Source of the DNA: an uncultured Spirochaetales bacterium
GTDB taxonomy: Bacteria > Spirochaetota > Spirochaetia > DTKZ01
Assembly: GCA_937991975.1 (NCBI GenBank)
Contig: CALKLC010000061.1
Coordinates: forward strand, 1-18,350
Length of the DNA stretch: 18,350 nucleotides
Reading direction: 5' to 3'
Shown: piece after piece, positions 3,389 to 17,733 of the stretch
How the letters are laid out: each line of letters starts with the position of its first letter
Position numbering within the stretch: the first letter of the stretch is position 1
The notes under the pieces: model-generated
Databases searched by the model: none
Told to the model about the DNA's origin: nothing
What the model saw: the letters and a program-made list of their open reading frames with translations, nothing else
Position numbers and translations under genes: made by a program

Positions 3389-3521
3389 TTAGGGCTATCT
3401 ATCATGGTGGCCCGTTTTAAGGGTCGCTCTTTAGGGTTGCTATCCAGGGGTGCCGGCTTCTATTTTTATCACGATTTATAGGACAGATCTTCTTATGGCT
3501 TAGATCTTGTTGGCCCCTCCC

Positions 3522-3980
3522 TTAGGGCCGTTCGGCCAGGATCTGGAGGATGGTTTTCGCATCCTTTGCCTCTAGAAGGCGATTCCGTTTGGACTCGCTT
3601 CGAAGGAGGGTACTGATCTCGGACAGGAACTGGATGTGGGGTCCGGTACGGTGACTGGGCGAAACCGTCATGATGAAGATCCGGCAAGGGTTTCCATCCA
3701 GCGATTGAAACTCTACCGGATGTTTGGAAATACCCACACAGGCGAGAAGTTCTTCTACCGCATCGGTTTTTCCGTGGGGAATGGCAATACCATTTTCCAT
3801 TCCGGTGGACATTTTGTTTTCCCGTGCCATAATGGCGTCGAGAGCTGCTTTACGGTCCTTTACCTTTCCTGTGCGACAGATGATATCCAATAGTTCTTCG
3901 ATGATTTCCTGTTTCGTGACGCCTTTCAAACTAGGGGTAACGGTGTCCAGGGTGAGGTACTTTAACAATGACATGTCCAT
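3522..3980 (-). CDS. ptsN: PTS EIIA type-2 domain protein, stand-alone (PtsN / EIIA-Ntr-like nitrogen regulatory protein)
   Basis: MDMSLLKYLTLDTV... contains the GIAIPHGKT active-site His motif of the fructose/mannitol-family EIIA. Size is about 152 aa. No EIIB/EIIC genes are adjacent. The ATG at 3980 is preceded by GAGGA. The ORF-track start at 4049 would add an implausible 23-aa extension. Confidence 0.75.
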   Translation of the reverse strand: MDMSLLKYLTLDTVTPSLKGVTKQEIIEELLDIICRTGKVKDRKAALDAIMARENKMSTGMENGIAIPHGKTDAVEELLACVGISKHPVEFQSLDGNPCRIFIMTVSPSHRTGPHIQFLSEISTLLRSESKRNRLLEAKDAKTILQILAERP

Positions 3981-4073
3981 ACAGTACGAATCCTCTATTT
4001 CACTGTCAAGGGATACACCTATTTTCTTACTGTTTGGTATTTTTCGCAATAGTTTTTTCTTGTAGAATCGTTT

Positions 4074-4475
4074 ATGCTCTTGCGTATGGATAGTGCAGAA
4101 CGATTCTATAGACAGTTGGATAAACTACAACAGACCCACCCGCCGGTTAGTTTCCGCACAGCTGTCCGGGAAGTACAGAGAGCCTTCGAAGAGGCGATGA
4201 GCAATATCCCCGAAACGTTGACAGAGGCCATTTACCTTCATTTCCTCGATTCTTTCAACCATGCGGAGCTTCCCGAGGAAAAATTTGTATCCTACGCATA
4301 CCGGCTGGGTCCCTATATCGATGTATTCTGGAAGCGGTATGACGAGGAGGAAGATCCCATTCCCGAGGAAGAATGGATCTTCCTGAAAGAAGCCGTATCT
4401 GAGGCAGCCGGAGAGATGGATCTCAAACTTCTCACATATATCATGCAGCTCATCATGGATAAGGGGCTGATCTAA
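4074..4475 (+). CDS. hypothetical acidic helical protein (133 aa), divergent from the ptsN-like gene
   Basis: Long ORF with coding-like composition. No motif I recognise. No clear SD, so the start is uncertain (4074 or 4086). Confidence 0.45.
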   Translation: MLLRMDSAERFYRQLDKLQQTHPPVSFRTAVREVQRAFEEAMSNIPETLTEAIYLHFLDSFNHAELPEEKFVSYAYRLGPYIDVFWKRYDEEEDPIPEEEWIFLKEAVSEAAGEMDLKLLTYIMQLIMDKGLI

Positions 4476-4542
4476 ACCCGTGAATACTTGACCTGTATCT
4501 TAAAGAGGGGTTCGCACAACGTATTAGTTTTACTCTTTAATA

Positions 4543-4563
4543 AGTGGTGCCAAAATTGTGGCG
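4543..4563 (-). repeat. Copy A of the intergenic repeat family, reverse orientation (AAGTGGTGCCAAAATTGTGGCG)
   Basis: It is the exact reverse complement of the core CGCCACAATTTTGGCACCACTT. It forms an inverted pair with copy B, with 100 nt between them. Confidence 0.85.
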
Positions 4564-4663
4564 AAGGTAGCAACTTCAACAATCACCTTACTGCCCGGCG
4601 GGTAAGGTTCGGCTGTGCATGGATTCGCAAGGATAAAAGGCCCTTGCAAAACCGTCAGCGAGA

Positions 4664-4690
4664 CCGCCACAATTTTGGCACCACTTTAGA
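4664..4690 (+). repeat. Copy B of the intergenic repeat family (CCGCCACAATTTTGGCACCACTTTAGAT)
   Basis: The 27-mer at 4664-4690 is identical to copy D (5987-6013). It lies in the convergent intergenic region between the hypothetical gene and the dehydrogenase. Confidence 0.85.
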
Positions 4691-4723
4691 TCCCTTCCGG
4701 CTCTTCTGGGTGAGGAGTGTCGC

Positions 4724-5698
4724 TCAGTTCACCACATTCTGGGGCTTCCCCTCCAGGAAGGCCTTCAGGTTCTCTGCGGCGGTGTGCATGAGGCGTTTGC
4801 GTGCCTCCAGGGTTGCCCAGGCGATGTGGGGAGTGACGATGCAGTTCTTTGCCTTCAAGAGGGGATTGTCCGCTTTCGGGGGTTCGGTAAAACCTACCAC
4901 ATCGAGAGCTGCTCCTGCAATCACCCCATTGTTCAGGGCATCGGCCAGATCTTCATCCACCACCAGTCCGCCTCGAGCAACGTTGATGAGGAAAGCAGAC
5001 TTTTTCATGAGCTTCAGGGTGTTCTTGTTGATCATGCCGGTATTTTCCGGGAACAGGGGGCAGTGGAGGCTTACCACATCGGAACGTTTCAGGAGGTCTT
5101 CCACCTCGGCCCATTCGAAGGGATAGGAGGGAGGGTTTTGCCTGTAGGTATCGTACGCGAGGATCTTCATACCGAAGGCCCGGCCGATCTCTCCTACACG
5201 CCGGCCGATCCGACCGAATCCAACAATTCCCAGGGTGCGGTCGTACAGTTCTATCAGCGGATAGTCCCAGAAGCAGAAATCCGGCTGGTTTGACCATTTT
5301 CCTTCTTTTACTACTCTATCGTGATGACCCACATGGTGGCAGAGTTCGAGAAGGAGAGCAAAGGTAAACTGGGCGACATTCACGGTCCCATACTCGGGAA
5401 TGTTGGTCACCGGGATCCCCTTCTGCCGGGCATACTTGAAGTCTACCACGTTGTATCCTGTAGCAATTACCCCGATGTACTTGAGGCGGGGAAGCTGATC
5501 GATGGTTTCCTTTGTAAGGGGGGTCTTGTTGGTGATAAGGACATCCGCGTCCTTACTCCGCGGTACGATATCCGCAGGGTTGATGGTACGATCATACACG
5601 GTAAGATTCCCTAAAGCCTCGAACTCGGACCAGGGATTGTCACCTGGATTGAGGGTATACCCATCCAGTACGACAATGTTGATGTTTTTCTTAGCCAT
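4724..5698 (-). CDS. D-isomer-specific 2-hydroxyacid dehydrogenase (glycerate dehydrogenase / hydroxypyruvate reductase-like)
   Basis: GIVGFGRIGRRVGEI is a Rossmann NAD-binding site. The catalytic-domain motifs NVARGGLVDE and TPHIAWAT are also present. The ATG at 5698 has AAGGAG 5 nt upstream. The track start (GTG at 5704) adds 2 aa. Confidence 0.88.
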   Translation of the reverse strand: MAKKNINIVVLDGYTLNPGDNPWSEFEALGNLTVYDRTINPADIVPRSKDADVLITNKTPLTKETIDQLPRLKYIGVIATGYNVVDFKYARQKGIPVTNIPEYGTVNVAQFTFALLLELCHHVGHHDRVVKEGKWSNQPDFCFWDYPLIELYDRTLGIVGFGRIGRRVGEIGRAFGMKILAYDTYRQNPPSYPFEWAEVEDLLKRSDVVSLHCPLFPENTGMINKNTLKLMKKSAFLINVARGGLVVDEDLADALNNGVIAGAALDVVGFTEPPKADNPLLKAKNCIVTPHIAWATLEARKRLMHTAAENLKAFLEGKPQNVVN

Positions 5699-5731
5699 GG
5701 CCACTCCTTCGAATGAGTTGTATTATGGTTT

Positions 5732-5744
5732 GTATTCAGAATAC
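5732..5744. promoter_or_regulatory. Perfect 13-bp palindrome GTATTCAGAATAC, about 35 bp upstream of the dehydrogenase start; candidate operator
   Basis: Direct reading. It sits in the presumed promoter region of the minus-strand dehydrogenase gene. A TTGTATT direct repeat lies beside it. Confidence 0.3.
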
Positions 5745-5862
5745 GACAGATATATAACAAATATGGGAAAGGATGTCTACAGCTTAGGAGAGAAAAGTAT
5801 CGCCCCGTGAGGTGCGGGTATTCTTTAAGGGGTATTTTCAGGCACGGTCCGGCATTAATAAA

Positions 5863-5885
5863 AAGTGGTGCCAATATTGTTGCGG
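5863..5885 (-). repeat. Copy C of the intergenic repeat family, reverse orientation, slightly diverged (AAGTGGTGCCAATATTGTTGCGG)
   Basis: Two mismatches to the core. It forms an inverted pair with copy D, with 101 nt between them. Confidence 0.8.
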
Positions 5886-5986
5886 TTTCGCTTAGAATTG
5901 TAAAATGAGCTTTCTATGTTTTCAGGCCCTTATCCAATAAGGCCTTGCCCAGGTGAGACAACAAGATCTATGGGGAAGTTTTCCCC

Positions 5987-6013
5987 CCGCCACAATTTTG
6001 GCACCACTTTAGA
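5987..6013 (+). repeat. Copy D of the intergenic repeat family (CCGCCACAATTTTGGCACCACTTTAGAT)
   Basis: 27-mer identical to copy B. A GC hairpin plus T-rich tract follows at about 6021-6040 on the plus strand. Confidence 0.85.
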
Positions 6014-6103
6014 TAGAATGAACCAGGCCGGGCCTTTCGTATCCGCTGCCCGCATTGAAAAGGGGGAGGCCAACTGATTCGGCCGCCAGAGCAAAAGCGG
6101 GAA

Positions 6104-6562
6104 TTATTCCCCCAGGGCGTTCAGTATCTCCTCTGCATGTCCTTCTGGTTTCACTTTGGGGAACACGTGAGTGATCCGGTTCTGCTCATCCAGGATGAAG
6201 GTGGAACGGATAATCCCGAAAAAGGTCTTTCCGTACATTTTCTTTTCTCCCGCGGCGCCGAACTCCTTGATCACCTTCATCTCTGGATCGGATAGGAGGA
6301 TGAAAGGGAGCTGATACTTGTACCGGAACTTTGCGTGCTTTTCCACCGGGTCCGCGCTGATCCCGATTACAACCGCACCTTTCTCTGCGATTCGCGTGTA
6401 CACATCGCGGAATCCGCAGGCCTCCTTCGTGCACCCGGGGGTATCGTCCTTCGGGTAGAAATAAATGACCTTTTTCTTCCCCGCGAAATGGGAGAGCTTT
6501 ACCTCTTTCCCATCTGCATCCTGTAACGAAAAATCTGCAATTGATTCGCCTATTTGTTTCAT
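6104..6562 (-). CDS. bcp: thioredoxin-dependent peroxiredoxin, Bcp-type (AhpC/TSA family)
   Basis: MKQIGESIADFSLQDADGKEVKLSHF...YFYPKDDTPGCTKEAC is the peroxidatic Cys motif (TPGCT). Length is about 153 aa from the ATG at 6562. The upstream extension in the track ORF is AT-rich promoter DNA. Confidence 0.88.
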   Translation of the reverse strand: MKQIGESIADFSLQDADGKEVKLSHFAGKKKVIYFYPKDDTPGCTKEACGFRDVYTRIAEKGAVVIGISADPVEKHAKFRYKYQLPFILLSDPEMKVIKEFGAAGEKKMYGKTFFGIIRSTFILDEQNRITHVFPKVKPEGHAEEILNALGE

Positions 6563-6605
6563 GCGTTTAAAATATTGATTTTTCTGTCGTCTGGCAAATT
6601 GAGTG

Positions 6606-6620
6606 AATTTTGGCACCACT
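6606..6620 (+). repeat. Copy E of the repeat family, partial (AATTTTGGCACCACT); immediately upstream of the gntR -35
   Basis: 15-nt match to the conserved half of the core. Confidence 0.6.
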
Positions 6621-6632
6621 GTAAATTTAGTA

Positions 6633-6683
6633 TTGACATACTGTAATAGTACAATTAAAATTGTACTATATGAATAGTACAAA
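6633..6683 (+). promoter_or_regulatory. sigma70-type promoter and autoregulatory operator of the gntR operon
   Basis: The -35 is TTGACA at 6633-6638, followed by a 17-nt spacer and the -10 TAAAAT at 6656-6661. An interrupted palindrome AGTACAATT-AA-AATTGTACT (6648-6667) overlaps the -10. A third half-site ATAGTACAAAT lies at 6673-6683 inside the start of the ORF. The geometry is typical of autorepression. Confidence 0.6.
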
Positions 6684-7071
6684 TGGGGGAAAAAAGCTTT
6701 CGATCCGGTTGGACGGTGCTTCGGGAGTGCCTTTTTACCGACAGATCATCCAGCAGATCGAACAAGCGATCCTCTCGAAACGACTCCTTCCCGGCGATAG
6801 ACTTCCCACGATCCGTTCCCTCGCGATCGAGCTGAAGATAAACCCCAATACCATCGCGAAGGCATATAACGAACTGGAAATCCGGGGAATCGTAGTTACC
6901 CAGGTAGGAAGCGGCACCTATGTCTCAGATAAGGAAATCGATATGGCCGAAAATGAGCGACAGAAAAAAATCGAAGAAAGCATAGCCCGATTCCTTCGGG
7001 AAATGGATGCACTAGGAGTCTTGAAGTCAGAGATACCCAGGCTAATCCGTGAGTTTAAGGAGGAAGAATGA
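6670..7071 (+). CDS. GntR-family transcriptional regulator, short YtrA-like subfamily
   Basis: An N-terminal winged-HTH region (RLPTIRSLAIELKINPNTIAKAYNELEIRGIVVTQVGSGTYV) is followed by a short C-terminal helical dimerisation tail of about 130 aa in total. An ATG at 6670 or a TTG at 6661 is possible. The stop overlaps the next gene (ATGA). Confidence 0.85.
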   Translation: MNSTNGGKKLSIRLDGASGVPFYRQIIQQIEQAILSKRLLPGDRLPTIRSLAIELKINPNTIAKAYNELEIRGIVVTQVGSGTYVSDKEIDMAENERQKKIEESIARFLREMDALGVLKSEIPRLIREFKEEE

Positions 7072-8216
7072 TCTTGTTCAATAAATCGAGGGATCAGGGG
7101 AAATTTCCTCTGATCAAGAATGTGGAGCCTAAAAAGACTCGAAAAGATTTCCGTATGGATGCGGTAGGGTTAGGAGCCCTTGCGCTCTTTGTGGTGTGCG
7201 TCGCGATTGGCCTTGCGCTGGGAGGTCGGCCTCCTAAAGCAGAGGTTCTGGGGATCCTCCTGGGAACACCCGTTGCGGCTTCCCTACTCATGACCCTTTT
7301 TCCCCGCTGGAGTACAGCGGTAAAGTTTCTCTTAGTGCTGGGATTGCTGGCTGCCCTGTGGCAGTCAGAACAAATGGGGATGGTTCTTGCCGTTGGAGCT
7401 GTAGGAGCCCTCGTGGCACCAGCGGTACAAAAGATGGAAGAGTGGGAACGATCTATCGTTCTTCGGTTCGGGAAGTTCCATCGGGTACGGGGGCCGGGGC
7501 TTTTCCTCCTGTTCCCCTTGATCGATCGCATTGCTCAGGTGGTGGATCTCCGGATCCGGGTTACGGACTTCTCTGCAGAAACGACTCTGACACGGGATTC
7601 GGTCACTGTAACGGTGGATGCCCTTTGCTTCTGGCTCGTATGGGACCCTGAAAAGGCAGTGCTGGAAGTGCAGAACTACGAGGAGGCGGTAATCCTTTCC
7701 TCGAAAACAGCGTTGCGGAATGCCATCAGTAAGAACGATCTGTCCACGTTCCTGGAGCGGGGAGAGGAGATCGAAGAGCAGATCCGAAGCGAAGTGGACA
7801 GGAAAACTACCGAATGGGGAATCACTGTCCAGCACATCGAAATCACCGATATCCAGATCCCGGAAAGCCTCCAGGTTTCGATGAGTCGATTGGCCCAGAT
7901 GGAGCGGGAGAAGAAGGGCAGGATCCAGCTGGCAGAAGCGGAGATCGAAACCGCCCGGCGCCTGGTTGAGGCAGCGGGGATCTATGGGGAAAACCGAACC
8001 GCATTGCGATTGCGAAAACTAGCAGTGCTGAACGAGGGGCTAAAGGCAGGGAACGGCATGATCCTTATACCGAACGAACTGGCTCGGGAACTCCGCGGGG
8101 GCGGGGTTCTTGGATTGGCCGCCCTCGAGGAAGCGAGGCAAACCAATAAGGAAAAGATGAAACCAGACACACAATCCGAAATCCAGGAAGAAGATGACGG
8201 GAGTAGTAAACAATGA
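7068..8216 (+). CDS. SPFH (band 7 / stomatin-like) membrane protein with an N-terminal 4-TM extension
   Basis: Four hydrophobic segments lie in aa 30-120. The SPFH core follows (EWERSIVLRFGKFHRVRGPGLFLLFPLIDRIAQVVDLRIRV ... VTVDALCFWLVWDPEKAVLEVQNYEEAV ... LRNAI), then a stomatin-like coiled-coil tail. AAGGAGG lies 5 nt upstream. The stop overlaps the ABC start. Confidence 0.85.
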   Translation: MILFNKSRDQGKFPLIKNVEPKKTRKDFRMDAVGLGALALFVVCVAIGLALGGRPPKAEVLGILLGTPVAASLLMTLFPRWSTAVKFLLVLGLLAALWQSEQMGMVLAVGAVGALVAPAVQKMEEWERSIVLRFGKFHRVRGPGLFLLFPLIDRIAQVVDLRIRVTDFSAETTLTRDSVTVTVDALCFWLVWDPEKAVLEVQNYEEAVILSSKTALRNAISKNDLSTFLERGEEIEEQIRSEVDRKTTEWGITVQHIEITDIQIPESLQVSMSRLAQMEREKKGRIQLAEAEIETARRLVEAAGIYGENRTALRLRKLAVLNEGLKAGNGMILIPNELARELRGGGVLGLAALEEARQTNKEKMKPDTQSEIQEEDDGSSKQ

Positions 8217-8896
8217 TCCTTGTGGAAGCGAGAGAACTGGTAAAAGACTACACGACGAATGGACTTACGGTGCATGCCCTTCGAGGAATCTCGTTGACTA
8301 TGGAACAGGGGGAGTTTTCGGCCATAGCCGGCCCTTCGGGTAGCGGGAAGTCTACCTTACTCCACCTGGTGGGATGCCTCGATGTCCCCACTGCCGGTAC
8401 GATCCGGATCGAAGAAACGGATATTTCCACCCTGTCGAGGAAGGAACTGGCCTTTCTGCGGCGGCGGAAGATCGGCTTCATCTTTCAGGCGTACAACCTG
8501 ATTCCGGTGCTTACAGCCCTGGAGAATGTATCCTTTCCTCTGACACTGTTGGGGGTTGATCGGAAGGAAGCCCGGCGCATGGCTCTGGAAGCGCTGGCAT
8601 CGGTGGGCCTGGAGGGGATGGGGAATCGGAAACCGAAAGAGATGTCCGGAGGGCAGCAGCAGCGGGTAGCGATCGCCCGTGCGCTGGTGAAAAAGCCTTC
8701 CCTCGTGCTGGCGGATGAACCGACTGCCAATCTGGACTCCCAAACAGGGAGAGAGATCCTGGAACTGATGCTATCGCTGAACCGATCGCTGGGTACCACC
8801 TTTCTCTTCTCTACCCACGACAGGATGGTGATGGAGTATGCGAGGCGGCTCGTCCACCTTCGGGACGGCCTGGTGGAACGGGAGGAGCGTCGATGA
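8213..8896 (+). CDS. ABC transporter ATP-binding protein, LolD/MacB/FtsE-like
   Basis: Walker A is GPSGSGKST, the signature is LSGGQQQRVAIARAL, and Walker B is LVLADEPTANLD, followed by an H-loop. ATGA overlaps occur at both ends. Confidence 0.92.
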   Translation: MILVEARELVKDYTTNGLTVHALRGISLTMEQGEFSAIAGPSGSGKSTLLHLVGCLDVPTAGTIRIEETDISTLSRKELAFLRRRKIGFIFQAYNLIPVLTALENVSFPLTLLGVDRKEARRMALEALASVGLEGMGNRKPKEMSGGQQQRVAIARALVKKPSLVLADEPTANLDSQTGREILELMLSLNRSLGTTFLFSTHDRMVMEYARRLVHLRDGLVEREERR

Positions 8897-10425
8897 TAAG
8901 GAGGGAACTCATCGGGATAGCCTTCCGGAACCTCTCCCGACACAGGGTAAAAACGATCATAACGGTTACGGGAGTGGCGGTAAGTGTGGCCCTCTACATT
9001 TTCATGGACGCATGGCTATTAGGGATGAACCTCGATTCAAAGCGAAACATCGTTTCGTACGAAATAGGGGCAGCCAAGATCCAGACCCAGGCTTATTTCG
9101 AAAAGAAGGATGATCTACCGATGTACGAAAGCTTCTCTAACTGGAAACCCATCGTGCAGGCCCTGGAGGAAGGAGGGTATGTGGCAGCACCCCGTATGGT
9201 TTTTAGCGGCACCCTATACTCCCGATCCGGGTCAGCCCCCATGGTGTTTCACGGAGTGGACCCCAAGGCAGAACGAAAGGTGTTACGGTACAGTAACTAC
9301 CTGGAAGTGGGGAGATTCCCCCAAGGGGGAACTTTCGAAATGGCTGTGGGATTGCTGGCCGCAGAAAAACTGAAACTCCACATTCCACAAAAGATTACGG
9401 TTAAGGAACTGGAAGAGAAATTACTGCGAATGGCTTTGCATCCAGATGAAGAGGCGTTTGTGCGGAGGTTGTATGAACATAAATTGTACAGAACATCAGG
9501 AGAAACGGGAAAAAGAGGGGAGGGGCAGCTGGTTGAGGGCGTCTACTTCCTGCGGCGGGATGTATCCCGGGAAGAGTTGAACCGATTCTGGGATCTCCTT
9601 CTTTCCTCGGGCGAAAACGATGTCAGGATCTCCACGGTGATCGATATCAAGGAGGAGTCCGGTAAGATCCGGCATGTGTACCAGGTGATGGAGGGGAAAG
9701 TGGTGGGGATCATCAATTCCCCCAATCCCAAGACCAACGGGAACGTGGCCTACCTCCCCCTTGATGTACTTTCAGGAGAAGCGGGCCTTCTTCTGGAAGA
9801 CCAGGTCACGGAAATATTGGTACGGGGAGCTTCCGCAAAGGATGGGTCTCTACCAAAACCCGATGAAACACCGGAGGCGATCGTGGAGTCGTTGAAACGG
9901 GTTGGCTATTCTTTACCTCCCACTCTCCGGGTGTATAGCTGGATGGACTATGTGAAGGATTACATCGCTGCATCCCGGCAGGATGATGTGACAACTCGGA
10001 TCATGATCCTCCTTCTCTTCATCCTTTCCTTCCTGGGGATCGCCAACACGATGCTGATGGCGATCCTGGAACGAACCAGGGAGATCGGCATGATGCGGGC
10101 TCTGGGGATGACGGATGGAGAGTTGATTCTATCCTACCTCTTCGAGGCTGGAATGATTGGATTGATCGGTGGGATCGTGGGGATGGTTCTTGGCTCTGTG
10201 GCGAATATTCCGATGGTGAACTACGGGGTCGATTACTCCTCCATGGCGCGTGAATTGAGTGGAGATTTCGGGTATCGGATCACTGCCCTGTTCCGTTCAG
10301 CCTGGAATCCTGGAACCATTATCGGCTCAGGAATCGTGGCCACCCTCATTTCCGCACTGTTGAGTATCCCCCCTATTCTCCGGGCACTGAAGATGCCTGT
10401 CACCGAAAGTCTCCGCTTTGAGTGA
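8893..10425 (+). CDS. ABC transporter permease, FtsX/MacB-LolCE type (4 TM with a large periplasmic domain)
   Basis: TM1 at the N-terminus is followed by an approx. 330-aa extracytoplasmic domain. The FtsX C-terminal 3-TM block follows (IMILLLFILSFLGIANTMLMAILERTREIGMMRALGMT). Confidence 0.88.
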   Translation: MIRRELIGIAFRNLSRHRVKTIITVTGVAVSVALYIFMDAWLLGMNLDSKRNIVSYEIGAAKIQTQAYFEKKDDLPMYESFSNWKPIVQALEEGGYVAAPRMVFSGTLYSRSGSAPMVFHGVDPKAERKVLRYSNYLEVGRFPQGGTFEMAVGLLAAEKLKLHIPQKITVKELEEKLLRMALHPDEEAFVRRLYEHKLYRTSGETGKRGEGQLVEGVYFLRRDVSREELNRFWDLLLSSGENDVRISTVIDIKEESGKIRHVYQVMEGKVVGIINSPNPKTNGNVAYLPLDVLSGEAGLLLEDQVTEILVRGASAKDGSLPKPDETPEAIVESLKRVGYSLPPTLRVYSWMDYVKDYIAASRQDDVTTRIMILLLFILSFLGIANTMLMAILERTREIGMMRALGMTDGELILSYLFEAGMIGLIGGIVGMVLGSVANIPMVNYGVDYSSMARELSGDFGYRITALFRSAWNPGTIIGSGIVATLISALLSIPPILRALKMPVTESLRFE

Positions 10426-10439
10426 GGAGGAGGTCGTAG

Positions 10440-11753
10440 ATGGAGGTAATGAAAGGGCTGGAAAGTAAGGGGAGCCCTATAGGGAGAAAGGCGCGTGGTG
10501 GGAGTGGATCTCTCGATCTCCTTCTCATTGCGTATCGAAACCTGAATCGGAACAGGCGGCGCACGATCCTCTGCGTGGTGGCGGTGGCCCTGGCCGTGTT
10601 CTTCAACATCTTCATGCAGTCCTGGATCGAGGGGATGTACAAGAGTATCGAGGAAGTGGTACAGACTTTCGAGACAGGGCATCTCCAGCTGGTTTCGAAG
10701 GGGTTCGAGGAGGAGAAAGAGTACCTGCCGGTCCAATTTCCCCTGGAAGACGGAAAGGCTGTTGAGGATCTTGTGTCTCGCATCGAAACCCTTCCCGGGG
10801 TGAAAGCTGCTCTCCCTCGAATCGTCACTTATGCCTCCCTCTTCGATAGTGTGGTGAAACATGCAATTGTCTGGGGTATCGAGGGTGAGCGGGAGCTGTC
10901 TCTTCATCCCTTGAACCTGACGGAACGGGGGAGCGGGATGGTGGAAGGTAGATTCCCCCGAAAGGGTGAAAATGCCTGTGCGGTAGGAGTAGGGTTTGCC
11001 GGAAAAGCAGGCATCAGGGTAGGAGATCGACTTCCCTTCAAGATGGTATCTGCTCAATTTTCCGATAAGTTCTGGAATCCCGAAGTGGTGGGGATTTTCA
11101 AGTTCGACTACCGGAAGTACGACGAGGGAGTGATCCTCGTCCCTTTTGACCGGTTGCAGAGAATCCTCGTACTGGGGGAAGGCACCCAGCAGCTGTTCAT
11201 ATATCTCGAGGATGCTGCGTACGTAGAGGAAATGAAACAGCCGATCCAGGCCCTTTTAGGTGAAGGTTCTGTAATCCATTCCTGGAAAGAGAATTATTGG
11301 GTTGCTTACCTCCGAAACAGCACATTTCTCTTTGTGATTATCTTTTCTGTGTTCCAGATCGTAGCGAGTTTCCTCATTATCAATACGATTGTTATGGTGA
11401 TCCACGAACGGATCAAAGAGATCGGGATGATGGGCGCTTTGGGGATGACAAGAGGCGAAATCGTACAGGTGTTCTTCTTCGAGGCAGTGCTATTGAGTGT
11501 GTTCGGCGCCTTTGCGGGGAGCTTGTTGGGAGGTATCGTGACCTGGATCGGATCCCTATTCCCCCTCGATATGGAAATGTTCACCGGGGGGGGAATGAAG
11601 GACTTTCCCATTTCAGGAACTCTCATTCTAACCTTCTCGGTCCAGATTCTGGGGAAAGGGTTCCTGTTCGGAGTAGTGGTCTCCGCTCTCTGTACCCTGT
11701 TTCCTTCATTGAAGAGTGCCTTCATCGAACCGGTAGAAGCATTACGGAGATAG
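10440..11753 (+). CDS. ABC transporter permease, second FtsX/LolCE-type paralogue
   Basis: Same architecture as the first permease (IVMVIHERIKEIGMMGALGMT). GGAGGAGG lies upstream. Confidence 0.88.
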   Translation: MEVMKGLESKGSPIGRKARGGSGSLDLLLIAYRNLNRNRRRTILCVVAVALAVFFNIFMQSWIEGMYKSIEEVVQTFETGHLQLVSKGFEEEKEYLPVQFPLEDGKAVEDLVSRIETLPGVKAALPRIVTYASLFDSVVKHAIVWGIEGERELSLHPLNLTERGSGMVEGRFPRKGENACAVGVGFAGKAGIRVGDRLPFKMVSAQFSDKFWNPEVVGIFKFDYRKYDEGVILVPFDRLQRILVLGEGTQQLFIYLEDAAYVEEMKQPIQALLGEGSVIHSWKENYWVAYLRNSTFLFVIIFSVFQIVASFLIINTIVMVIHERIKEIGMMGALGMTRGEIVQVFFFEAVLLSVFGAFAGSLLGGIVTWIGSLFPLDMEMFTGGGMKDFPISGTLILTFSVQILGKGFLFGVVVSALCTLFPSLKSAFIEPVEALRR

Positions 11754-11770
11754 AAAAGGAGGTTGCCACC

Positions 11771-12571
11771 ATGACAAAAGGTACACAAGTTCGAGGAGGC
11801 TTGGTTCTATTTGCGGCCCTACTGGTAACTTCATTTCTTCCCACCCCTGGCATCGCTCAAGCGCAGGACTCCTCTGGCGGGGTACATCCTGGAGTGCCTT
11901 CGGCCGTCGAACTCCTGGCCCGGGTAGATGCCAACGAGGTGTACGATTCCATCACCTACGAAGGAGAGATGGTGATCGAATACCAGGGGAAACGGTTCCT
12001 CAAGGTATTCAAAGCTGCCGGCCGGGGAAATACGGATAGTTTCGTGGAGTTCTTGAATCCTGAGGATCGGGGAACCAGGTACTTGAAAAAAGAAGGGCGG
12101 TTATACGTGTATTCCCCCGATACCGAGTCCATCATGCTGATCTCGGGGCACCTATTGAAAGAGTCCATGATGGGTTCTGACCTTTCGTACGAGGATACCA
12201 TTGATAACGACACCCTTTCGGCTCGGTACACGCCCGTTCTTGCAGGGTCCGAGGAAGTGAAAGGGCGGAGAAGCTGGGTGCTGGAACTCACGGCCCGAAA
12301 GCGAACAGAGAGTTACCCGAAACGGAAGCTCTGGATCGATGCGGGAACCGGGGAACTTCTCCGGATGGAGATGTATGCTCTTTCCGGGGCAAAACTGAAA
12401 GAGTACGAACTGATCCGATCCGAGCGGATCGGAAACCGGTATTTCCCCGTCGAATTTGTGATGCGGGATCTCCTCCGTAAGGATAGCCGGACTTTCTTTC
12501 GTATGCGGAATGTGGTACTGGATGCGAGGATTCCGGATTCGGTTTTTAGTATGCGCAACCTCCGCAAGTAG
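11771..12571 (+). CDS. secreted LolA-fold protein (outer-membrane lipoprotein-sorting-protein-like)
   Basis: AAGGAGG lies 8 nt upstream. There is a signal peptide with an AQA/QD cleavage site. The sequence is beta-rich and LolA-like (VFKAAGRGNTDSFVEFLNPEDRGTRYLKKEGRLYVYSP...RSWVLELTA). This family classically neighbours FtsX-type permeases. The ORF-track start at 11297 is an out-of-context upstream extension. Confidence 0.7.
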   Translation: MTKGTQVRGGLVLFAALLVTSFLPTPGIAQAQDSSGGVHPGVPSAVELLARVDANEVYDSITYEGEMVIEYQGKRFLKVFKAAGRGNTDSFVEFLNPEDRGTRYLKKEGRLYVYSPDTESIMLISGHLLKESMMGSDLSYEDTIDNDTLSARYTPVLAGSEEVKGRRSWVLELTARKRTESYPKRKLWIDAGTGELLRMEMYALSGAKLKEYELIRSERIGNRYFPVEFVMRDLLRKDSRTFFRMRNVVLDARIPDSVFSMRNLRK

Positions 12572-12589
12572 GGGGTTGGGCCGCGAAAG

Positions 12590-14050
12590 ATGATCCCAAG
12601 TAAAGGCGTGGAGATGCTGTCCGCGAGAATACAGGAAAAGCAAAGAGAAGTGAAAACAAATCAAAAACAGTGGGAACCACCTCTGCAGGTGCGCCGGCTG
12701 CAGTCTCTATTCTGGGTATGGTTGTGCCTGTGGCTCTTCTCCATAGGACAGGGGAAAGCGTTCGGGGATGGCCAGGTTCCGCCTGCGCACAATAGATGGC
12801 CCCTTTTGGTGGGACACGGACAAACCCTCAGCAATGATCAGGCGCCGCCTGAGCAAAACAAATTGCGCTTTTCGGTTGTTGCAGATACCACTGTGGAGGG
12901 GGCCTGGGTTCCGGGGTATGGGGGAAGTGAGAAGGGAGCGTATGGATTCGAGCAGTACGGGAACCTCCGGCTGGAAGCACCCCTGAAAGAATGGGGAAAG
13001 GTGTATGTGGCGGTGAATGTGCTGGCCGCTTCGGGGACTGCTTTGCCTGGGATATCCTCGACATCTATTGGTCAAGGATCTATGGGGCAGGGGTACGGAT
13101 CCATCGTGGAGCTGGAACGGTTGTACTACCGCCTCGAAACAGAGGCGGTGGATTGGGAAACCGGGCTTCTACGGATCCCCTTTGGGTTTGGACAGGCCTT
13201 CAGGCCTATGGACTTCCTCAATCCTCCCAGTCCTCTCCATCCCGATGCCCGGCCGCGGGGGGTCCTGGGAACTCTCTACACGCAGTATCCTTCCGAAACG
13301 ACTCTTGTAAGGATTTTTGCCGCATCAGGCCCGGATCCTACCCAGACAGACGGTTCCGGAGCTCTGGCCGGGATTTCCGGGGAACTCCATGTTCCTTCTT
13401 CCAGTGTGCAGGTTTTGTACGCGCTCCAGGCTCCCCGGACAGGGGAAAAGCGGCCTACCCATCGTTTGGGTCTTTCCTACAAGTGGGACGGAGAGGTGTC
13501 GATCACTCTGGATGCTCTCTATACCCTCTGGAGAGATGCCCTGGTCACGAATCGGTGGTACGACCGGACGTGGCATCCCATACTCGGGCTGCAGCTGACG
13601 GCAGGCCTGGATGCCTCCTTCGGAGACTTCATCGCTTTCATCCAGTATCTGTACAACGGCTCTGGTCCCCTTGAACCGAAGGATCCTCTTTCCGAACTCT
13701 ACGATCCCTCGAGGGGAAATTGGAGGGATTTGCCTCCGGACAAGCGTCTTTATAGGTCTGATCTGCCCATCGGTGAATGGAATCGGCGTAACTACCTGTT
13801 CGCTTCCCTACTCTACAAGGTGAATGATTACACCCGCCTCAGCCTGAGTAGCACGGTGAACCTGGATGATGGATCCCTGGTTCCCGCGGCTATCCTTGAG
13901 CATGAACCGTTCCAGGGTCTCACGGTGCAGCTTGCTCTGCGGGTGTTCCTGGATCCTGCTCTTTGGGGGATCGGCCCAGAGGGGGAGTTGGGCCCCCTTC
14001 ATACAGGGAAACGGGGAGACTGCTCGGTGAAAGTACGGATCAGGTTCTAA
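12590..14050 (+). CDS. putative outer-membrane beta-barrel protein (porin-like); start uncertain
   Basis: A hydrophobic signal-like segment (LQSLFWVWLCLWLFSIGQG) follows a long charged N-region. An in-frame GTG at 12689 is a plausible alternative start. The sequence is Gly/Tyr/Trp-rich with alternating hydrophobic patterns, and the C-terminus is ...VKVRIRF (terminal Phe beta-signal). Confidence 0.6.
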   Translation: MIPSKGVEMLSARIQEKQREVKTNQKQWEPPLQVRRLQSLFWVWLCLWLFSIGQGKAFGDGQVPPAHNRWPLLVGHGQTLSNDQAPPEQNKLRFSVVADTTVEGAWVPGYGGSEKGAYGFEQYGNLRLEAPLKEWGKVYVAVNVLAASGTALPGISSTSIGQGSMGQGYGSIVELERLYYRLETEAVDWETGLLRIPFGFGQAFRPMDFLNPPSPLHPDARPRGVLGTLYTQYPSETTLVRIFAASGPDPTQTDGSGALAGISGELHVPSSSVQVLYALQAPRTGEKRPTHRLGLSYKWDGEVSITLDALYTLWRDALVTNRWYDRTWHPILGLQLTAGLDASFGDFIAFIQYLYNGSGPLEPKDPLSELYDPSRGNWRDLPPDKRLYRSDLPIGEWNRRNYLFASLLYKVNDYTRLSLSSTVNLDDGSLVPAAILEHEPFQGLTVQLALRVFLDPALWGIGPEGELGPLHTGKRGDCSVKVRIRF

Positions 14051-14892
14051 AGAGTGACCGTTTTGCGTTTTCGTTTGAGAACGTATCGGATCAAGCCGTC
14101 ATCCGGGCGAGGGACATATACCCCGCTCTTCGAACCCGTAAACTCCAGCTGGAAGGTATCTCCCGCTCTGTGAACACGAAACCGTCCAGTACAGGAGGGG
14201 CATTGCAAGATTTCCCCATCCTGAATGTCCGGTCTAGGCACGATCAAAGGCCCGCATGCTGGGCAGGATAGAAGCAACCGGTTTTCCCCTGCATGTCCCA
14301 GAATAGGGGTTAGTTTATCCGATTTCGCTATCGATAGGAAAAGATCCACCAGATGGGGATCGAACTGTTTCCCTTTCTCTTCGGAAAGAATGGAGAGGGC
14401 TTGATCCACAGGCAGGGCAGGCCGATAGGGACGGGGGCTGGTGAGGGCATCGAAGGTATCTGCGATGGCGGTAATCTTTCCCCAGATGGTGATACTATCG
14501 CCATCCAGCCTTGCGGGGTAGCCGGTTCCATCCACCCGTTCATGATGCTCCAGGATGCTGTAGCGGATGAGGGGGTACAACGTATGATTCTGCCCGATTT
14601 CTCCTCCTACCACGGGATGCTGCCGAACCACCTGAAACTCCTGATCCGAAAGGGGGCCATTCTTATTGAGGATTCCATCGGACACTCCCACTTTCCCTAG
14701 ATCGTGCACCATAGATCCCAACTCGAGTACGAATTGATAATTCTTGTCCAAACCGTATCGCATCCCCAGGAGAACGCTGTAGCGGCTTACCCTCCAGATA
14801 TGTCCCCCTGTGTAGGGGTCCCGAGCTTCGATGACAGAGGCCAGGGCGATCAAAGATTTCAAGAGATGGTTGTGGATTTCGATTTTTTTCAT
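14047..14892 (-). CDS. HD-GYP domain phosphodiesterase (likely c-di-GMP) with a C-terminal MJ0042-type zinc-ribbon
   Basis: HD (VHDLGKVGV) and HHERVDGTGYP motifs are present. The C-terminus has CPACG...CPSCTGRFRV, a CxxC...CxxC ribbon. There is no N-terminal sensor domain. The stop overlaps the stop of the convergent barrel gene. Confidence 0.85.
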   Translation of the reverse strand: MKKIEIHNHLLKSLIALASVIEARDPYTGGHIWRVSRYSVLLGMRYGLDKNYQFVLELGSMVHDLGKVGVSDGILNKNGPLSDQEFQVVRQHPVVGGEIGQNHTLYPLIRYSILEHHERVDGTGYPARLDGDSITIWGKITAIADTFDALTSPRPYRPALPVDQALSILSEEKGKQFDPHLVDLFLSIAKSDKLTPILGHAGENRLLLSCPACGPLIVPRPDIQDGEILQCPSCTGRFRVHRAGDTFQLEFTGSKSGVYVPRPDDGLIRYVLKRKRKTVTL

Positions 14893-14924
14893 TCTACCAA
14901 TGTACCCTGTAAATGGGATTTCGT

Positions 14925-16604
14925 CTAATGAGAAAAGAACAGTTTTACCATCGGAAGGTTCGCAGGGACCTCGCCTATGCCCACAGAGCTTCCTGGTTCG
15001 TTCCTTTTTAGCTTCTGGCAGGCCAATTGCCCGGGAACAAAATTCTCATACTTCTGGCAAACGGTCTTCCGGCGTGCAAGCGATTGGTTTGAAAGCCCCT
15101 GGCGTGCAGGCCCTTGCCGTGATGGATTCCGAAAGGTCAGGAGACGGTTTGTCCTCTGGATCTCCTGGATAAGGGCTTCCTCTTCTTTAGTTTTCTGTTC
15201 CTTTTTCAGGAGGTTCACGTACCGGCAAAGGCGAAAGGCCGTTACCAGTTCTTCTGTGGTTAGAGAACCTGTCCATGGATACGCGAAGGATCCGCGGCTC
15301 GATCCCGGATGCTTCAGGAGCAGGTCAGGAGGCGGCGAGAAGCCCGGAATCCCGGGCACGGGGTAGAAGAGGGAAATCCCCAGTAGGGTGGGAAGAGGTT
15401 GGAGGAACTGGATCTGCTCTACGATCCGTTCCGGCGTATCAGCCTCGAGGCCAGCAATGAAATAAGTGATGGAAGAAGCTCCTCGATTATGGATTTCTTT
15501 GACTACGTCGAGGTAGTGGGATAGATCGACCGGGCGGTCTACCTTGAAGGCCGTTTCCCAATAGATCGTTCCAAGGGATAGGTTGAAGCGATGGAAACCG
15601 TACTGGATCAGCTGGTCGATACGGGAAGGGTCCAGCAGGAGATAGTCCAGACCGTTTTCTGCGGAAAACAGAACAGAAGGATGGATGGATTTAACCAGCT
15701 TTAGAACCTCGAAGAAGTACTCTGGCGCGCAGAGAAGATTATCATCCTCGAAGTTCAGATAGAGGATCGGTTTAGGTGGAAGCTTTCGGATCGCCCGCTC
15801 GAAAAGCGAGAGGGGTGTCATGCGAAACTCCCGGCCATGACAGAGATAGTTTGAGCAGAACCGGCACCCTTTGGGGCAGCCTCTGCTCAAGGAAGTGGTT
15901 GCCCAGATTTTTTGTGATGTTTCCCTCACAATGGCAACTGTTCCCGTAAGCTCATCCTGTCGGCACAGGTGGTCTGCGCGAATCACTTCGGTTCCTCCCT
16001 CGGCCGATGAGCCCTTTTTCCTCATCAGTTGTTCAATCTTTTCCAGTAATAGAGGGACAGTGACTTCCCCCTCCCCTGCTGCCACGTAGTCGAAGAGCGG
16101 CCTCTGAGCGGCTAAAGAGGACCGGGCATCGTTCTGTTCGAAAGCTGGGGGGGCCACGTTTTGTGTCGTGTAATACTCGGGGCAGGAACTCGGACCCGCA
16201 CCCCCTACGGCGAGGAGTGTAGTGGGTAAAAGGGATCGGATCACTCGAGCAAGGGCGACCGCTTCTTCTGCGTACGCGTACGCGAAGGAGGAAAGGAACA
16301 CTGCGTCAGGTTGAAAGGTATAGATCCTGCGGCCACATTCCTCGAAAGGGGGGCCAAAGTGCTGGAATCGGGTGAAAAACGATAGGGGGCCGAACTCGGT
16401 AGGAACCATGTAGGGGAGAAGGTGGGAAGCCTCTTCGGGTAAGGGAATCGTATATGAGCGCTCCTTTTGGGGAAAAAGAAAAAGCTTTACTTCGTGCCTT
16501 CTTTCCCTACAGAGATCAGCGACAATTCTCGCGCCCAGAGCGCTCAGGCGATGGGGGGTAAGGTAGAAATCCCGGATCGGGGGGGCAACCACAGCAATAC
16601 GCAT
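14925..16604 (-). CDS. B12-binding-domain radical SAM protein (COG1032-like)
   Basis: An N-terminal Rossmann-like cobalamin-binding region (MRIAVVAPPIRDFY...) is followed by the SRGCPKGCRFCS CxxxCxxC radical-SAM cluster motif. Length is 559 aa. Confidence 0.8.
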   Translation of the reverse strand: MRIAVVAPPIRDFYLTPHRLSALGARIVADLCRERRHEVKLFLFPQKERSYTIPLPEEASHLLPYMVPTEFGPLSFFTRFQHFGPPFEECGRRIYTFQPDAVFLSSFAYAYAEEAVALARVIRSLLPTTLLAVGGAGPSSCPEYYTTQNVAPPAFEQNDARSSLAAQRPLFDYVAAGEGEVTVPLLLEKIEQLMRKKGSSAEGGTEVIRADHLCRQDELTGTVAIVRETSQKIWATTSLSRGCPKGCRFCSNYLCHGREFRMTPLSLFERAIRKLPPKPILYLNFEDDNLLCAPEYFFEVLKLVKSIHPSVLFSAENGLDYLLLDPSRIDQLIQYGFHRFNLSLGTIYWETAFKVDRPVDLSHYLDVVKEIHNRGASSITYFIAGLEADTPERIVEQIQFLQPLPTLLGISLFYPVPGIPGFSPPPDLLLKHPGSSRGSFAYPWTGSLTTEELVTAFRLCRYVNLLKKEQKTKEEEALIQEIQRTNRLLTFRNPSRQGPARQGLSNQSLARRKTVCQKYENFVPGQLACQKLKRNEPGSSVGIGEVPANLPMVKLFFSH

Positions 16605-16616
16605 TCCTATTCCATC

Positions 16617-16892
16617 TTACCCTTTCTGTGAGGTGTCCTCTAACAACCGAACTACTTCTTGTTCTTCTTTTTCGCTCTGTTGACCCGCCTGATCCAGATC
16701 CTGTATGGCTTTTTGGGCGGATTGATTGTAGAATCCGAGTTTTCTGATAATAAAAGTGATGGTATCAAGGTACTGGGAGAATTTCTGGAATTCTGAGAGT
16801 TGCTGAGTAGCCTGGACCACGGCTGTTAGGTCTTCTGAGCTTTGTCTCGAGGCGAAGCTTAGTCCCTGGATCACTTGTTCTACCTCTTTCAT
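16617..16892 (-). CDS. small Q/E-rich helical protein (91 aa), hypothetical
   Basis: The ORF abuts the upstream 54-aa ORF (TAGATG) and ends 12 nt before the radical SAM start. Operon position supports it. No motif I recognise. Confidence 0.5.
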   Translation of the reverse strand: MKEVEQVIQGLSFASRQSSEDLTAVVQATQQLSEFQKFSQYLDTITFIIRKLGFYNQSAQKAIQDLDQAGQQSEKEEQEVVRLLEDTSQKG

Positions 16893-17057
16893 CTACTGGG
16901 ATTCTTCCTTCAAAACAGGTTGTAGTTCTCCTTGCCCTTCTAAAGAACGCTGAATTCGTTCACCCTGGGATTGGAGGGTGGAATCTACCTCACTGATTAC
17001 CGTATACAGGTGATGAAACAACTGCTGAGCCTGCCCAAGGTATTCTCCCTGATTCAT
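16893..17057 (-). CDS. small helical protein (54 aa, MNQGEYLGQAQQLFHHLYTVISEVDSTLQSQGERIQRSLEGQGELQPVLKEESQ), hypothetical
   Basis: Hand translation of the minus strand. The ATG is at 17057 and the TAG stop at 16893-16895, directly followed by the ATG of the 91-aa ORF. It is not in the supplied track because it is under 60 aa. Its Q-rich composition resembles that of the neighbour. Confidence 0.4.
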   Translation of the reverse strand: MNQGEYLGQAQQLFHHLYTVISEVDSTLQSQGERIQRSLEGQGELQPVLKEESQ

Positions 17058-17267
17058 GGTACGGTCCTGTATAACACCAACTCGAGAGAGGACCTACTTT
17101 AGGTTAGTGGGTGTAGTTCGACTTTTCTCAATCTCCCCCTGTAGATCTTCCATGAGCCTACGAACTATTAGACCGATGGCGGCAGATACAGCACCCTGGA
17201 AAAGGAACACGACGGCAAAGATGGACCTTCTTTCCGCAAGGGTAGGTACACCAGCTCGAGTTATGAA

Positions 17268-17507
17268 TCATACCATACTCACGATTGAAATGAATACAAG
17301 GGAGCCCCGGTAGCCAGGGGAAACGAGAATGCCCGCTGGCGTGATGAAACCCATAAGAAGACCTACTACGGATATGAGGACTGCTGGGTAGATCGTAGTG
17401 TTCGGTATGTTCAGGTACCCTACAGCGAGGATCGTAAGGCATAAGGTGCTGAGTAAGCACAGTTGCCAATACACGGTGTTACACCTCCGGGCAACGCCCG
17501 CCTGCAC
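17268..17507 (-). CDS. small membrane protein (2 TM in the first 79 aa) terminated by TGA; the frame stays open a further 57 codons to the TAG at 17094-17096 and includes a third TM
   Basis: Codon 80 is TGA. Hand translation of the same frame continues FITRAGVPTLAERRSIFAVVFLFQGAVSAAIGLIVRRLMEDLQGEIEKSRTTPTNLK. The protein is either disrupted or a read-through candidate. Confidence 0.5.
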   Translation of the reverse strand: MQAGVARRCNTVYWQLCLLSTLCLTILAVGYLNIPNTTIYPAVLISVVGLLMGFITPAGILVSPGYRGSLVFISIVSMV

Positions 17508-17552
17508 AAAGGCTTGAAAGGTAGTAAGCCCATTCTAGAATCACCTTTGAAA

Positions 17553-17575
17553 CCGCCACAATTTTGGCACCACTT
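17553..17575 (+). repeat. Copy F of the intergenic repeat family (CCGCCACAATTTTGGCACCACTT), followed by AATAAGAG
   Basis: Exact 23-nt core. It lies in the divergent region between the membrane-protein gene and the 3'-partial gene. The outer flank TTAATAAGAG resembles the flank of copy A (TTATTAAAGAG). Confidence 0.85.
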
Positions 17576-17676
17576 AATAAGAGCTTTAGGTTCCTCTCCT
17601 TACGTTTTAAATTAGAAAAGGTATGCCCTGGATTCAAGGGTATCTAAGGAAAAAGTTTCTTTTATGGTGGTTGCCC

Positions 17677-17705: not shown

Positions 17706-17733
17706 AGAATTTATATTTATCAAAGGAGTATCC

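Follow-up and report, generated by a model that had tools for sequence, protein, structure and literature searches.

A repressor-headed spirochaete operon that pairs a type VII ABC pump with a LolA-like carrier and an unnamed outer-membrane barrel: a conserved system and a proposed switchable export route

What a single set of genes spanning the inner membrane, the periplasm and the outer membrane of a spirochaete might be for is the question raised by a seven-gene locus in an uncultured Spirochaetales bacterium (GenBank assembly GCA_937991975.1, contig CALKLC010000061.1, positions 1 to 18,350; the window, below, means this entire stretch of 18,350 nucleotides). The locus encodes a GntR-type regulator, an SPFH protein, an ATP-binding cassette (ABC) ATPase, two FtsX-type permeases, a LolA-like carrier and an outer-membrane barrel. 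A first-pass annotation, made from the letters alone, was unable to place it in a characterised system and, in agreement with this, the literature searched contained neither an experimental study of the operon nor a characterised system with the same gene set. Our results identify the system as a conserved and uncharacterised type VII ABC variant, which works like LolCDE-LolA without being a member of that family. Tentatively, and at somewhat less than even confidence, we propose that the autorepressed operon is a complete, switchable export route from the inner to the outer membrane for hydrophobic or amphipathic cargo.

All seven open reading frames (ORFs) exist as genes and run head to tail on the + strand (Table 1). 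The domain assignments of their products were made by Pfam and NCBIfam profile searches, which confirmed both the seven co-directional genes and the domain content that the first-pass annotation had named. Three junctions are ATGA overlaps (GntR/SPFH, SPFH/ABC ATPase and ABC ATPase/FtsX permease 1) and three are short intergenic gaps of 14, 17 and 18 nt, the 14-nt gap, which precedes permease 2, containing GAGGAGG ahead of the ATG. Four ATGA overlaps and two gaps (14 and 17 nt) had originally been described; both gaps stand, but the fourth overlap does not, as it requires the LolA-like gene to start at 11750, where the codon is ATA. That gene starts instead at ATG 11771, with an AAGGAGG Shine-Dalgarno sequence in front, and the 266-residue carrier read from this ATG is identical to a gene called on a public contig, no longer version being on record. 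Recognisable Shine-Dalgarno sequences lie ahead of most of the downstream genes, and a consensus scan revealed no convincing + strand promoter or terminator inside the operon, the total number of sites not exceeding the shuffled expectation. This result, together with the tight packing and the strength of the Shine-Dalgarno sequences, makes it the best reading that the seven genes form one operon. A foreign island was ruled out, since the G+C content across the operon (0.49-0.58) is unremarkable and the flanking genes are ordinary housekeeping ones.

Table 1. Genes of the operon (6670-14050) and elements of its control region, with positions in the window.
Feature	Positions	Strand	Evidence and remarks
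Sigma-70-like promoter	6633..6661	+	TTGACA 6633-6638, 17-nt spacer, TAAAAT 6656-6661
Putative operator	6646..6682		three exact TTGTACTAT copies: 6646-6654 (-), 6661-6669 (+), 6674-6682 (-)
GntR regulator, YtrA-type	6670-7071	+	PF00392, E 1.6e-18, 66.5 bits; 133 aa
Band_7/SPFH protein	7068-8216	+	Band_7, E 2.6e-36, 125.7 bits; 382 aa
ABC ATPase, type VII kind	8213-8896	+	ABC_tran 120 bits; 227 aa
FtsX/MacB-type permease 1	8893-10425	+	FtsX 68 bits, MacB_PCD weak 24 bits; 510 aa
FtsX/MacB-type permease 2	10440-11753	+	FtsX 54 bits, MacB_PCD 52 bits; 437 aa
LolA_like carrier	11771-12571	+	PF17131, E 1.3e-45, 155.7 bits (cut-off 30); 266 aa
Outer-membrane barrel, unnamed family	12590-14050	+	no Pfam match; AF2 model; 486 aa, ends ...VKVRIRF

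The inner-membrane part of the system has the features of a type VII ABC transporter. The best NCBIfam matches of the ATPase are LolD (235 bits), DevA (210 bits), FtsE (205 bits), DarD (204 bits) and the MacB nucleotide-binding domain (199 bits), and it belongs to the LolD/FtsE/MacB nucleotide-binding-domain clade that typifies type VII. By hydropathy, permease 1 has transmembrane segments at residues 22-40, 370-388, 419-437 and 474-492, with a periplasmic domain of about 330 residues, and by hydropathy and Pfam permease 2 has four transmembrane helices and a MacB-like periplasmic core domain of about 235 residues; both have the type VII topology, i.e. a first transmembrane helix, a large periplasmic domain and three further helices, together with an FtsX domain. 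With respect to solved structures, permease 1 matches LolF, Spr0695-like, YtrF and MacB proteins, and permease 2 matches LolF (9w35), LolE/LolC (7arh) and YtrF (9o9x), the last of these matching both permeases. The two subunits, as judged from these profiles and lengths, appear to be specialised, perhaps like LolC and LolE. The orthologues of permease 1 range from 439 to 584 residues with a periplasmic domain of varying length (related loci L001, L002, L004, L092 and L093), and permease 2 is constant in length.

The predicted carrier passes the Pfam gathering threshold for the family PF17131, also labelled 'TP_0789-like', to which it belongs. Its signal peptide is of type I, with no lipobox cysteine, and the N-terminal hydrophobic segment is followed by AQA-QD; the protein matches the LolA-superfamily structures 4z48, 3buu, 3bk5 and 9tp6. 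Secondary Pfam matches were to MucB_RseB (25.9 bits, cut-off 22.3) and, below threshold, to DUF1329 (16.2 bits), and Pfam gave no match to canonical LolA (PF03548) at E<=0.01.

The barrel carries a signal peptide and ends in Phe, the C terminus of its family being aromatic and usually Phe. An AlphaFold2 (AF2) model, built from an alignment of 38 homologues, is confident and has 18 strands (predicted local distance difference test score, pLDDT, 82.4; predicted template-modelling score, pTM, 0.76). In fold comparison its nearest structural neighbours are Occ/OprD, MOMP, ChiP and maltoporin, with the exporters AlgE and Wzi also similar; because the sequence identity to these neighbours is only 7-12%, the likeness is one of fold class rather than of family. 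No sequence match to the OprD/Occ family model was observed, and the barrel family is without a name in Pfam or NCBIfam. Loop 3 of classical porins constricts the lumen, and the most conserved segment of the barrel (residues ~192-227, GLLRIPFGxGQAxxPxDFLNPxNPLxPDARPRGVLG), which lies between strands 5 and 6 of the model, would by strand parity correspond to extracellular loop 3.

The barrel family, being specific to the system, served as the handle with which related loci were sought. A word-index search with the barrel returned spirochaete proteins only, and a scan of one genome per species found relatives in 97 species, nearly all of them Treponema or other Spirochaetia and many from termite guts. 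When the seven window proteins were compared by tblastn with related loci, the full seven genes were present in the same order at 26 of the 31 non-redundant loci with >7.8 kb upstream, the remaining five having the ATPase, the two permeases, the carrier and the barrel only; at loci with >5.2 kb upstream, the ATPase, both permeases and the carrier preceded the barrel without exception (42/42). This arrangement, the gene-neighbourhood conservation of which had been suggested as a check on the first-pass annotation, is conserved far beyond chance. The full operon occurs in the cultured species Gracilinema caldarium and Sediminispirochaeta bajacaliforniensis (reached via an SPFH search), as well as in cultured Treponema primitia, Breznakiella homolactica and Brucepastera parasyntrophica.

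Some of these loci merit individual comment. The loci with the five-gene core but without GntR and SPFH genes (L002/L003, L058, L064, L066 and L083) are from termite guts, and in L002 the ATPase gene is preceded by genes for three proteins of unknown family (172, 269 and 507 residues). Spirochaetia bacterium MS495-79 has two whole copies of the operon in opposite orientation (L018 and L019; BNUT01000001.1, 16513-37652 reversed and 46660-67799) with identical tblastn statistics, reflecting either a recent inverted duplication or an assembly artefact. Spirochaete-type barrels with 33-34% identity were found in two termite-gut metagenome-assembled genomes assigned to Fibrobacterota, one of Chitinispirillales (L084) and one of Chitinivibrionia (L068), which may reflect lateral transfer or else an error of binning; in L068 the carrier gene precedes that of the barrel, and tblastn detected no partner genes in the 4.1 kb upstream of the L084 barrel.

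More distant relatives point to which parts of the system belong together. Against 1.8 billion representatives, the barrel-family profile retrieved 861 proteins at E<=1e-3 and 101 at E<=1e-30; ten distant relatives, when scanned against Pfam, gave no significant family. Every distant relative with a neighbourhood long enough to read (the contexts of L089 and L090 being too short) adjoins a PF17131 protein. The gene order is ABC-FtsX-FtsX-PF17131-barrel in L088 and L094/L095, and TetR-barrel-ABC-FtsX-FtsX-PF17131 in L091 and in Persicobacter (Bacteroidota, L087), where a 378-residue protein matches the barrel profile with an hhalign probability of 93%. In Haliovirga (Fusobacteriota, L086) the order is TetR-MMPL-PF17131-ferredoxin-barrel, with an hhalign probability of 85% for the barrel; where a regulator of a distant module was seen, it was TetR. 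The stable unit is thus carrier plus barrel, with a pump that is either ABC or MMPL and a regulator that is either GntR or TetR. That carrier and barrel stay paired while the pump varies is our strongest argument that the carrier links the pump to the barrel. The first-pass annotation had regarded LolA-like proteins beside FtsX permeases as a recurrent, uncharacterised association, and the recurrence holds at large evolutionary distance with the barrel included.

The control region of the operon is sharply defined. The promoter scores 11 of 12 consensus positions, making it the best + strand site found between 6000 and 15000 by the consensus scan, and the coordinate 6633 at which the first-pass annotation began its feature is the first base of the -35 hexamer. 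The three copies of TTGTACTAT, with the consensus TTGTACTAK, are the only exact copies in the window and build two overlapping perfect palindromes (inverted repeats I2 and I3), which between them take in the promoter spacer and -10 hexamer as well as the transcription start and the repressor ATG. This ATG, at 6670, lies 8 nt past the -10 hexamer and between two half-sites, with no Shine-Dalgarno sequence. In the promoter regions extracted from every related locus that included one, the layout TTGACA-tA-TTGTACTAG, 11 nt, TTGTACTAG-ATG-AATAGTACAA is kept in about 28 spirochaete species, and the spacing TTGACA, 17 nt, -10, 8 nt, ATG is likewise kept in about 28 orthologous loci. As judged from sequence conservation, the repressor start codon is fixed at 6670 by this operator layout, and its mRNA is probably leaderless because the -10 hexamer is only 8 nt from the ATG. 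Since GntR/YtrA repressors act in this way and the putative operator layout is conserved, it is probable that the operon is silenced by its own repressor, which would sit over the spacer, the -10 hexamer and the transcription start.

The repressor itself consists of a GntR winged helix-turn-helix domain (residues 23-85) followed by a short helical tail at the C terminus. The Rv1152 (6-115 of 120) and PmtR (3-123 of 125) models align with it almost end to end, and its best solved relatives, again near full length, are 4r1h (Lmo0741), 4ham (Lmo2241), 3by6, 3neu and 2du9. The winged helix-turn-helix, the short helical C-terminal part (~50-60 residues) and a total length within about 120-135 residues are those of the YtrA subfamily, as are the putative palindromic operator at its own promoter and the position beside ABC transporter genes.

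The SPFH protein is matched by stomatin structures at E 5e-35 over residues 120-335, and also by structures of archaeal PH1511, QmcA and HflK; its relatives carry the database label 'slipin family'. Hydropathy indicates hydrophobic segments at residues 33-51, 60-78 and 102-120, and an AF2 model of low confidence (pLDDT 58), used for secondary structure only, has helices at 32-51, 58-77, 83-99 and 101-133 and long C-terminal helices at 266-307 and 310-326. The predicted order, i.e. about four N-terminal transmembrane helices, which is unusual, then the Band_7 domain and then a helical region, has the Band_7-helical arrangement of SPFH/stomatin proteins. A partner gene for NfeD, the usual prokaryotic stomatin arrangement, had no Pfam match among the operon proteins. 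The evidence on the individual proteins bears out the first-pass annotation with respect to the YtrA-type repressor at the 5' end (by length and by its match to short YtrA-class structures), the multi-helix membrane SPFH protein, the type VII ATPase with its pair of FtsX permeases with large periplasmic domains, the secreted LolA-fold protein, and the 486-residue β-barrel with a C-terminal Phe.

Type VII ABC systems are defined by their periplasmic partner, and only four pairings have been worked out in Escherichia coli, i.e. FtsEX with EnvC, LolCDE with LolA, MacAB-TolC with its partner MacA/TolC, and YbbAP with TesA. In type VII systems ATP-driven movements of the periplasmic domains act on the periplasmic partner (PMC12646458). 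The operon resembles LolCDE-LolA(-LolB), including the LolDF variant, in having a separate LolD-like ATPase, two different FtsX-type permeases with periplasmic domains and best matches to LolF, LolE and LolC, and a soluble carrier of the LolA-type fold, here encoded alongside. The differences are substantial. The ATPase scores 235 bits against the curated LolD model (TIGR02211), the cut-off of which is 307.75, and the permeases score 109 (permease 2) and 63 bits against the curated LolC/E model (TIGR02212), the cut-off of which is 362.45; the carrier is of PF17131, whereas LolA is of PF03548; the acceptor is an 18-stranded integral barrel, whereas that of LolA is the lipoprotein LolB; and only the operon described here has its own repressor and an SPFH protein. 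The description 'LolCDE-like' given previously is therefore apt for fold and architecture but not at the level of the curated thresholds, and a canonical LolCDE paralogue was ruled out as the family assignment by scores far below the cut-offs.

Like the operon, MacAB-TolC has a type VII ABC core, with a periplasmic core domain of the MacB kind, and an envelope-spanning purpose, but here the ATPase is a separate polypeptide, the permeases are a heteropair and a soluble carrier, rather than a continuous duct, would bridge the periplasm. No match to a membrane-fusion adaptor (MacA/HlyD) was found in the seven proteins or in the Pfam lists of orthologous operons, nor was there a Pfam match to TolC/OEP, the outer-membrane protein modelling as a single-chain 18-stranded barrel; having neither an adaptor nor a TolC-like protein, the operon was ruled out as a MacAB-TolC-type pump.

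Regulation is best compared with that of ytrGABCDEF in Bacillus subtilis, where YtrA represses its own operon via an inverted repeat; cell-wall antibiotics induce this operon, one product of which is the FtsX-type YtrF (PMC8060467). Both have a short YtrA-class GntR repressor as first gene, a palindromic operator (putative in the spirochaete) at its own promoter and an FtsX-type protein, although B. subtilis is monoderm, its operon has no LolA-like protein, barrel or SPFH protein, and the operators differ (AGTGTA-N13-TACACT in B. subtilis, TTGTACTA-N6-TAGTACAA here).

The nearest published description is a computational one of Borrelia BBJ23-BBJ29 (Biosci Rep 2026), a cluster in which a MacB-like transporter occurs together with a LolA-like protein and a barrel of Omp85-like type, the Treponema homologues of the Borrelia barrel lying among unrelated genes according to its authors (PMC13078400). 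The Borrelia barrel (BBJ25) is Omp85-like with 346 residues and the permease is a homodimer, whereas the barrel here is porin-like with 18 strands; two chaperone-like proteins are encoded there, and neither a repressor nor an SPFH protein is described. When the barrel and carrier were searched by tblastn against the plasmid collection, no Borrelia record was returned; homology with the BBJ25/BBJ28 cluster was dropped on this ground, and the two systems are analogous but non-homologous.

The same carrier family is found beside an inner-membrane exporter in the MMPL/RND modules of Haliovirga (pHIC) and Thalassolituus (TOL_3187/3188), with a porin in some cases; pHIC also has a remote homologue of our barrel. 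Their pump is driven by the proton-motive force rather than by ATP, the regulator where seen is TetR, and there is no SPFH protein. Treponema pallidum has the theme of a pump plus carrier, not the seven-gene operon, TP0789 being, as we assume from locus numbering only, the neighbour of TP0790. The region TP0784-0790 was ruled out as the same operon, as it has Lpt components and an AcrB-like pump instead (TP0784-0786 modelled as LptC/A/B and TP0790 as the pump; PMC8407342). In Thalassolituus, growth on C28 alkane induces the MMPL/LolA-like fusion together with its neighbouring porin (PMC6304351).

How these parts may act together can be outlined as follows. At rest, the YtrA-type repressor would occupy the three TTGTACTAK sites and keep the leaderless transcript off; a signal, candidates for which are the cargo itself or a perturbation of the membrane, would release it, and the seven proteins would then be made in fixed proportions via translational coupling. 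Induction by envelope stress, which the first-pass annotation had raised as a possibility, and export as the function are inferences. The ATPase dimer would drive the permease heterodimer by the 'mechanotransmission' of type VII systems, and cargo would reach the permeases from the inner membrane, by way of its outer leaflet, or else from the periplasm, to be loaded by them into the soluble LolA-like carrier, as LolCDE loads LolA. The carrier would cross the periplasm and dock on the 18-stranded barrel, which would insert the cargo into the outer membrane or release it outside. The four-helix stomatin-type SPFH protein would probably assemble into an oligomeric ring or cage that confines the pump or keeps it stable, as in the solved stomatin, QmcA and HflK/C assemblies. 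The direction of transport, the hand-over to carrier and barrel, the SPFH role, the cargo and the inducer are the parts of this outline that go beyond the gene content, folds, topology, synteny and operator conservation described above.

With respect to purpose, we favour inducible efflux or extrusion (of toxic lipophilic compounds, amphipathic peptides or surplus lipid) over constitutive biogenesis, because the modules are headed by repressors of kinds that control efflux pumps (GntR/YtrA, TetR), and because the pump is exchangeable (ABC or MMPL) and some species do without the repressor and SPFH genes. The induction of the Thalassolituus MMPL/LolA-like fusion and porin on C28 alkane and the autorepression by B. 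subtilis YtrA are further support for a switchable export route. Several observations weigh against it. YtrA-class repressors do not have a classical ligand-binding domain, so it is not assured that the substrate induces its own pump; five of the 31 loci have neither the repressor nor the SPFH gene, which makes these two accessory; confidence in the SPFH model is low; the closest structural neighbours of the barrel (Occ/OprD, MOMP, ChiP and maltoporin) are mostly uptake channels; and the ATPase and permeases are, by sequence, nearest to Lol components, which would fit an endogenous lipoprotein or lipid cargo equally well.

This last point leads to the most serious rival, which we regard as rather unlikely, namely that the same architecture serves envelope biogenesis, with an endogenous lipid, glycolipid or lipoprotein as its cargo. 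By sequence, the ATPase and permeases are closest to LolD, LolF, LolE and LolC, the carrier is in the LolA superfamily, and the DevA family of glycolipid exporters is among the best ATPase matches; the operon is, moreover, widely kept among free-living and termite-gut spirochaetes. To our knowledge, from the literature, the spirochaetes that carry it are probably without LolB. No LolB is known in Borrelia either, where the analogous cluster has been proposed to move lipoproteins (PMC13078400). On the other hand, the curated LolD and LolC/E thresholds were missed by a wide margin, the carrier is of PF17131 and not canonical LolA, and neither barrel nor carrier has a Borrelia plasmid match. A dedicated repressor with a putative operator over the promoter, like the TetR that heads distant versions, is more usual for pumps of an accessory, inducible kind than for housekeeping biogenesis, and the exchangeability of the pump for MMPL likewise speaks against a biogenesis role.

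The remaining two readings are less likely than one with endogenous cargo. It is improbable, in our estimate, that no cargo is moved and that the ABC complex signals in the manner of FtsEX-EnvC, with the LolA-like protein as an allosteric adaptor for a periplasmic or outer-membrane activity. The type VII class does include non-transporters such as FtsEX-EnvC (PMC12646458), B. subtilis YtrBCDEF has been suggested not to act as a transporter (PMC8060467), and the LolA-like GerS is an allosteric activator of an amidase. However, Pfam searches of the orthologous operons revealed no conserved hydrolase or other enzyme gene, the conserved partner is an 18-stranded channel-type barrel, and an MMPL transporter can replace the ABC complex beside the carrier-barrel pair. 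An inward-working system, in which a hydrophobic nutrient (long-chain fatty acids, sterols or hydrocarbons) would enter through the barrel and be ferried to the inner membrane by the LolA-like protein, is very improbable, for although substrate-specific uptake channels (Occ/OprD, ChiP, maltoporin) are the nearest structural neighbours of the barrel and growth on C28 alkane induces the Thalassolituus protein and porin, the 18-stranded fold similarity also takes in the exporters AlgE and Wzi, Pfam finds neither an importer-type substrate-binding protein nor catabolic genes in the operon, and we know of no type VII ABC transporter or MMPL/RND pump that imports.

The operon adds a further pairing to those of the type VII systems, i.e. 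a soluble PF17131 carrier with a dedicated barrel, and one that recurs far outside the close spirochaete family. It is set apart by an outer-membrane barrel from a family without a name, together with the soluble carrier, the SPFH protein and an operator that is sharply defined and putatively autoregulatory. A bolder and, we consider, unlikely extension is that a pump (type VII ABC or MMPL), a PF17131 carrier and an 18-stranded barrel together constitute an unrecognised and widespread class of trans-envelope shuttle. Spirochaetes, presumed to have no LolB, might in that case use the shuttle to deliver a specific glycolipid or lipoprotein to the outer membrane or the cell surface, so that it would supply the route they are missing, with the stomatin cage organising its inner-membrane station. 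The system would be a concrete and tractable case in which to study the periplasmic transit of hydrophobic molecules in the absence of a continuous duct, and the way in which an SPFH scaffold might organise a transporter. The proposal is directly testable because the operator is sharply defined and there are cultured carriers of the system (G. caldarium, T. primitia, B. homolactica, S. bajacaliforniensis and Persicobacter).

The genes on either side of the operon were also considered. Divergent from it across the shared intergenic region is a Bcp/AhpC-type peroxiredoxin gene (6104-6562, - strand), on the side of which lies a weak - strand promoter-like site (6597-6569); this neighbour is common only to the closest relatives (L004 and L005), so the peroxiredoxin is probably outside the system. 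Further upstream, two adjoining + strand ORFs of 133 and 212 residues (4074-5126) are without a Pfam match, and at least the latter may not be a real gene because a well-supported gene on the other strand, for a D-2-hydroxyacid dehydrogenase (4724-5704), overlaps it. Downstream, a gene for an HD-GYP-type phosphohydrolase with a zinc-ribbon-like CxxC...CxxC C-terminal tail (14047-14892, - strand) is convergent with the barrel gene, the stop regions of the two overlapping by 4 nt, and beyond it a B12-binding radical SAM gene (14925-16604) is likewise convergent to the operon. Both of these downstream neighbours also occur in L004.

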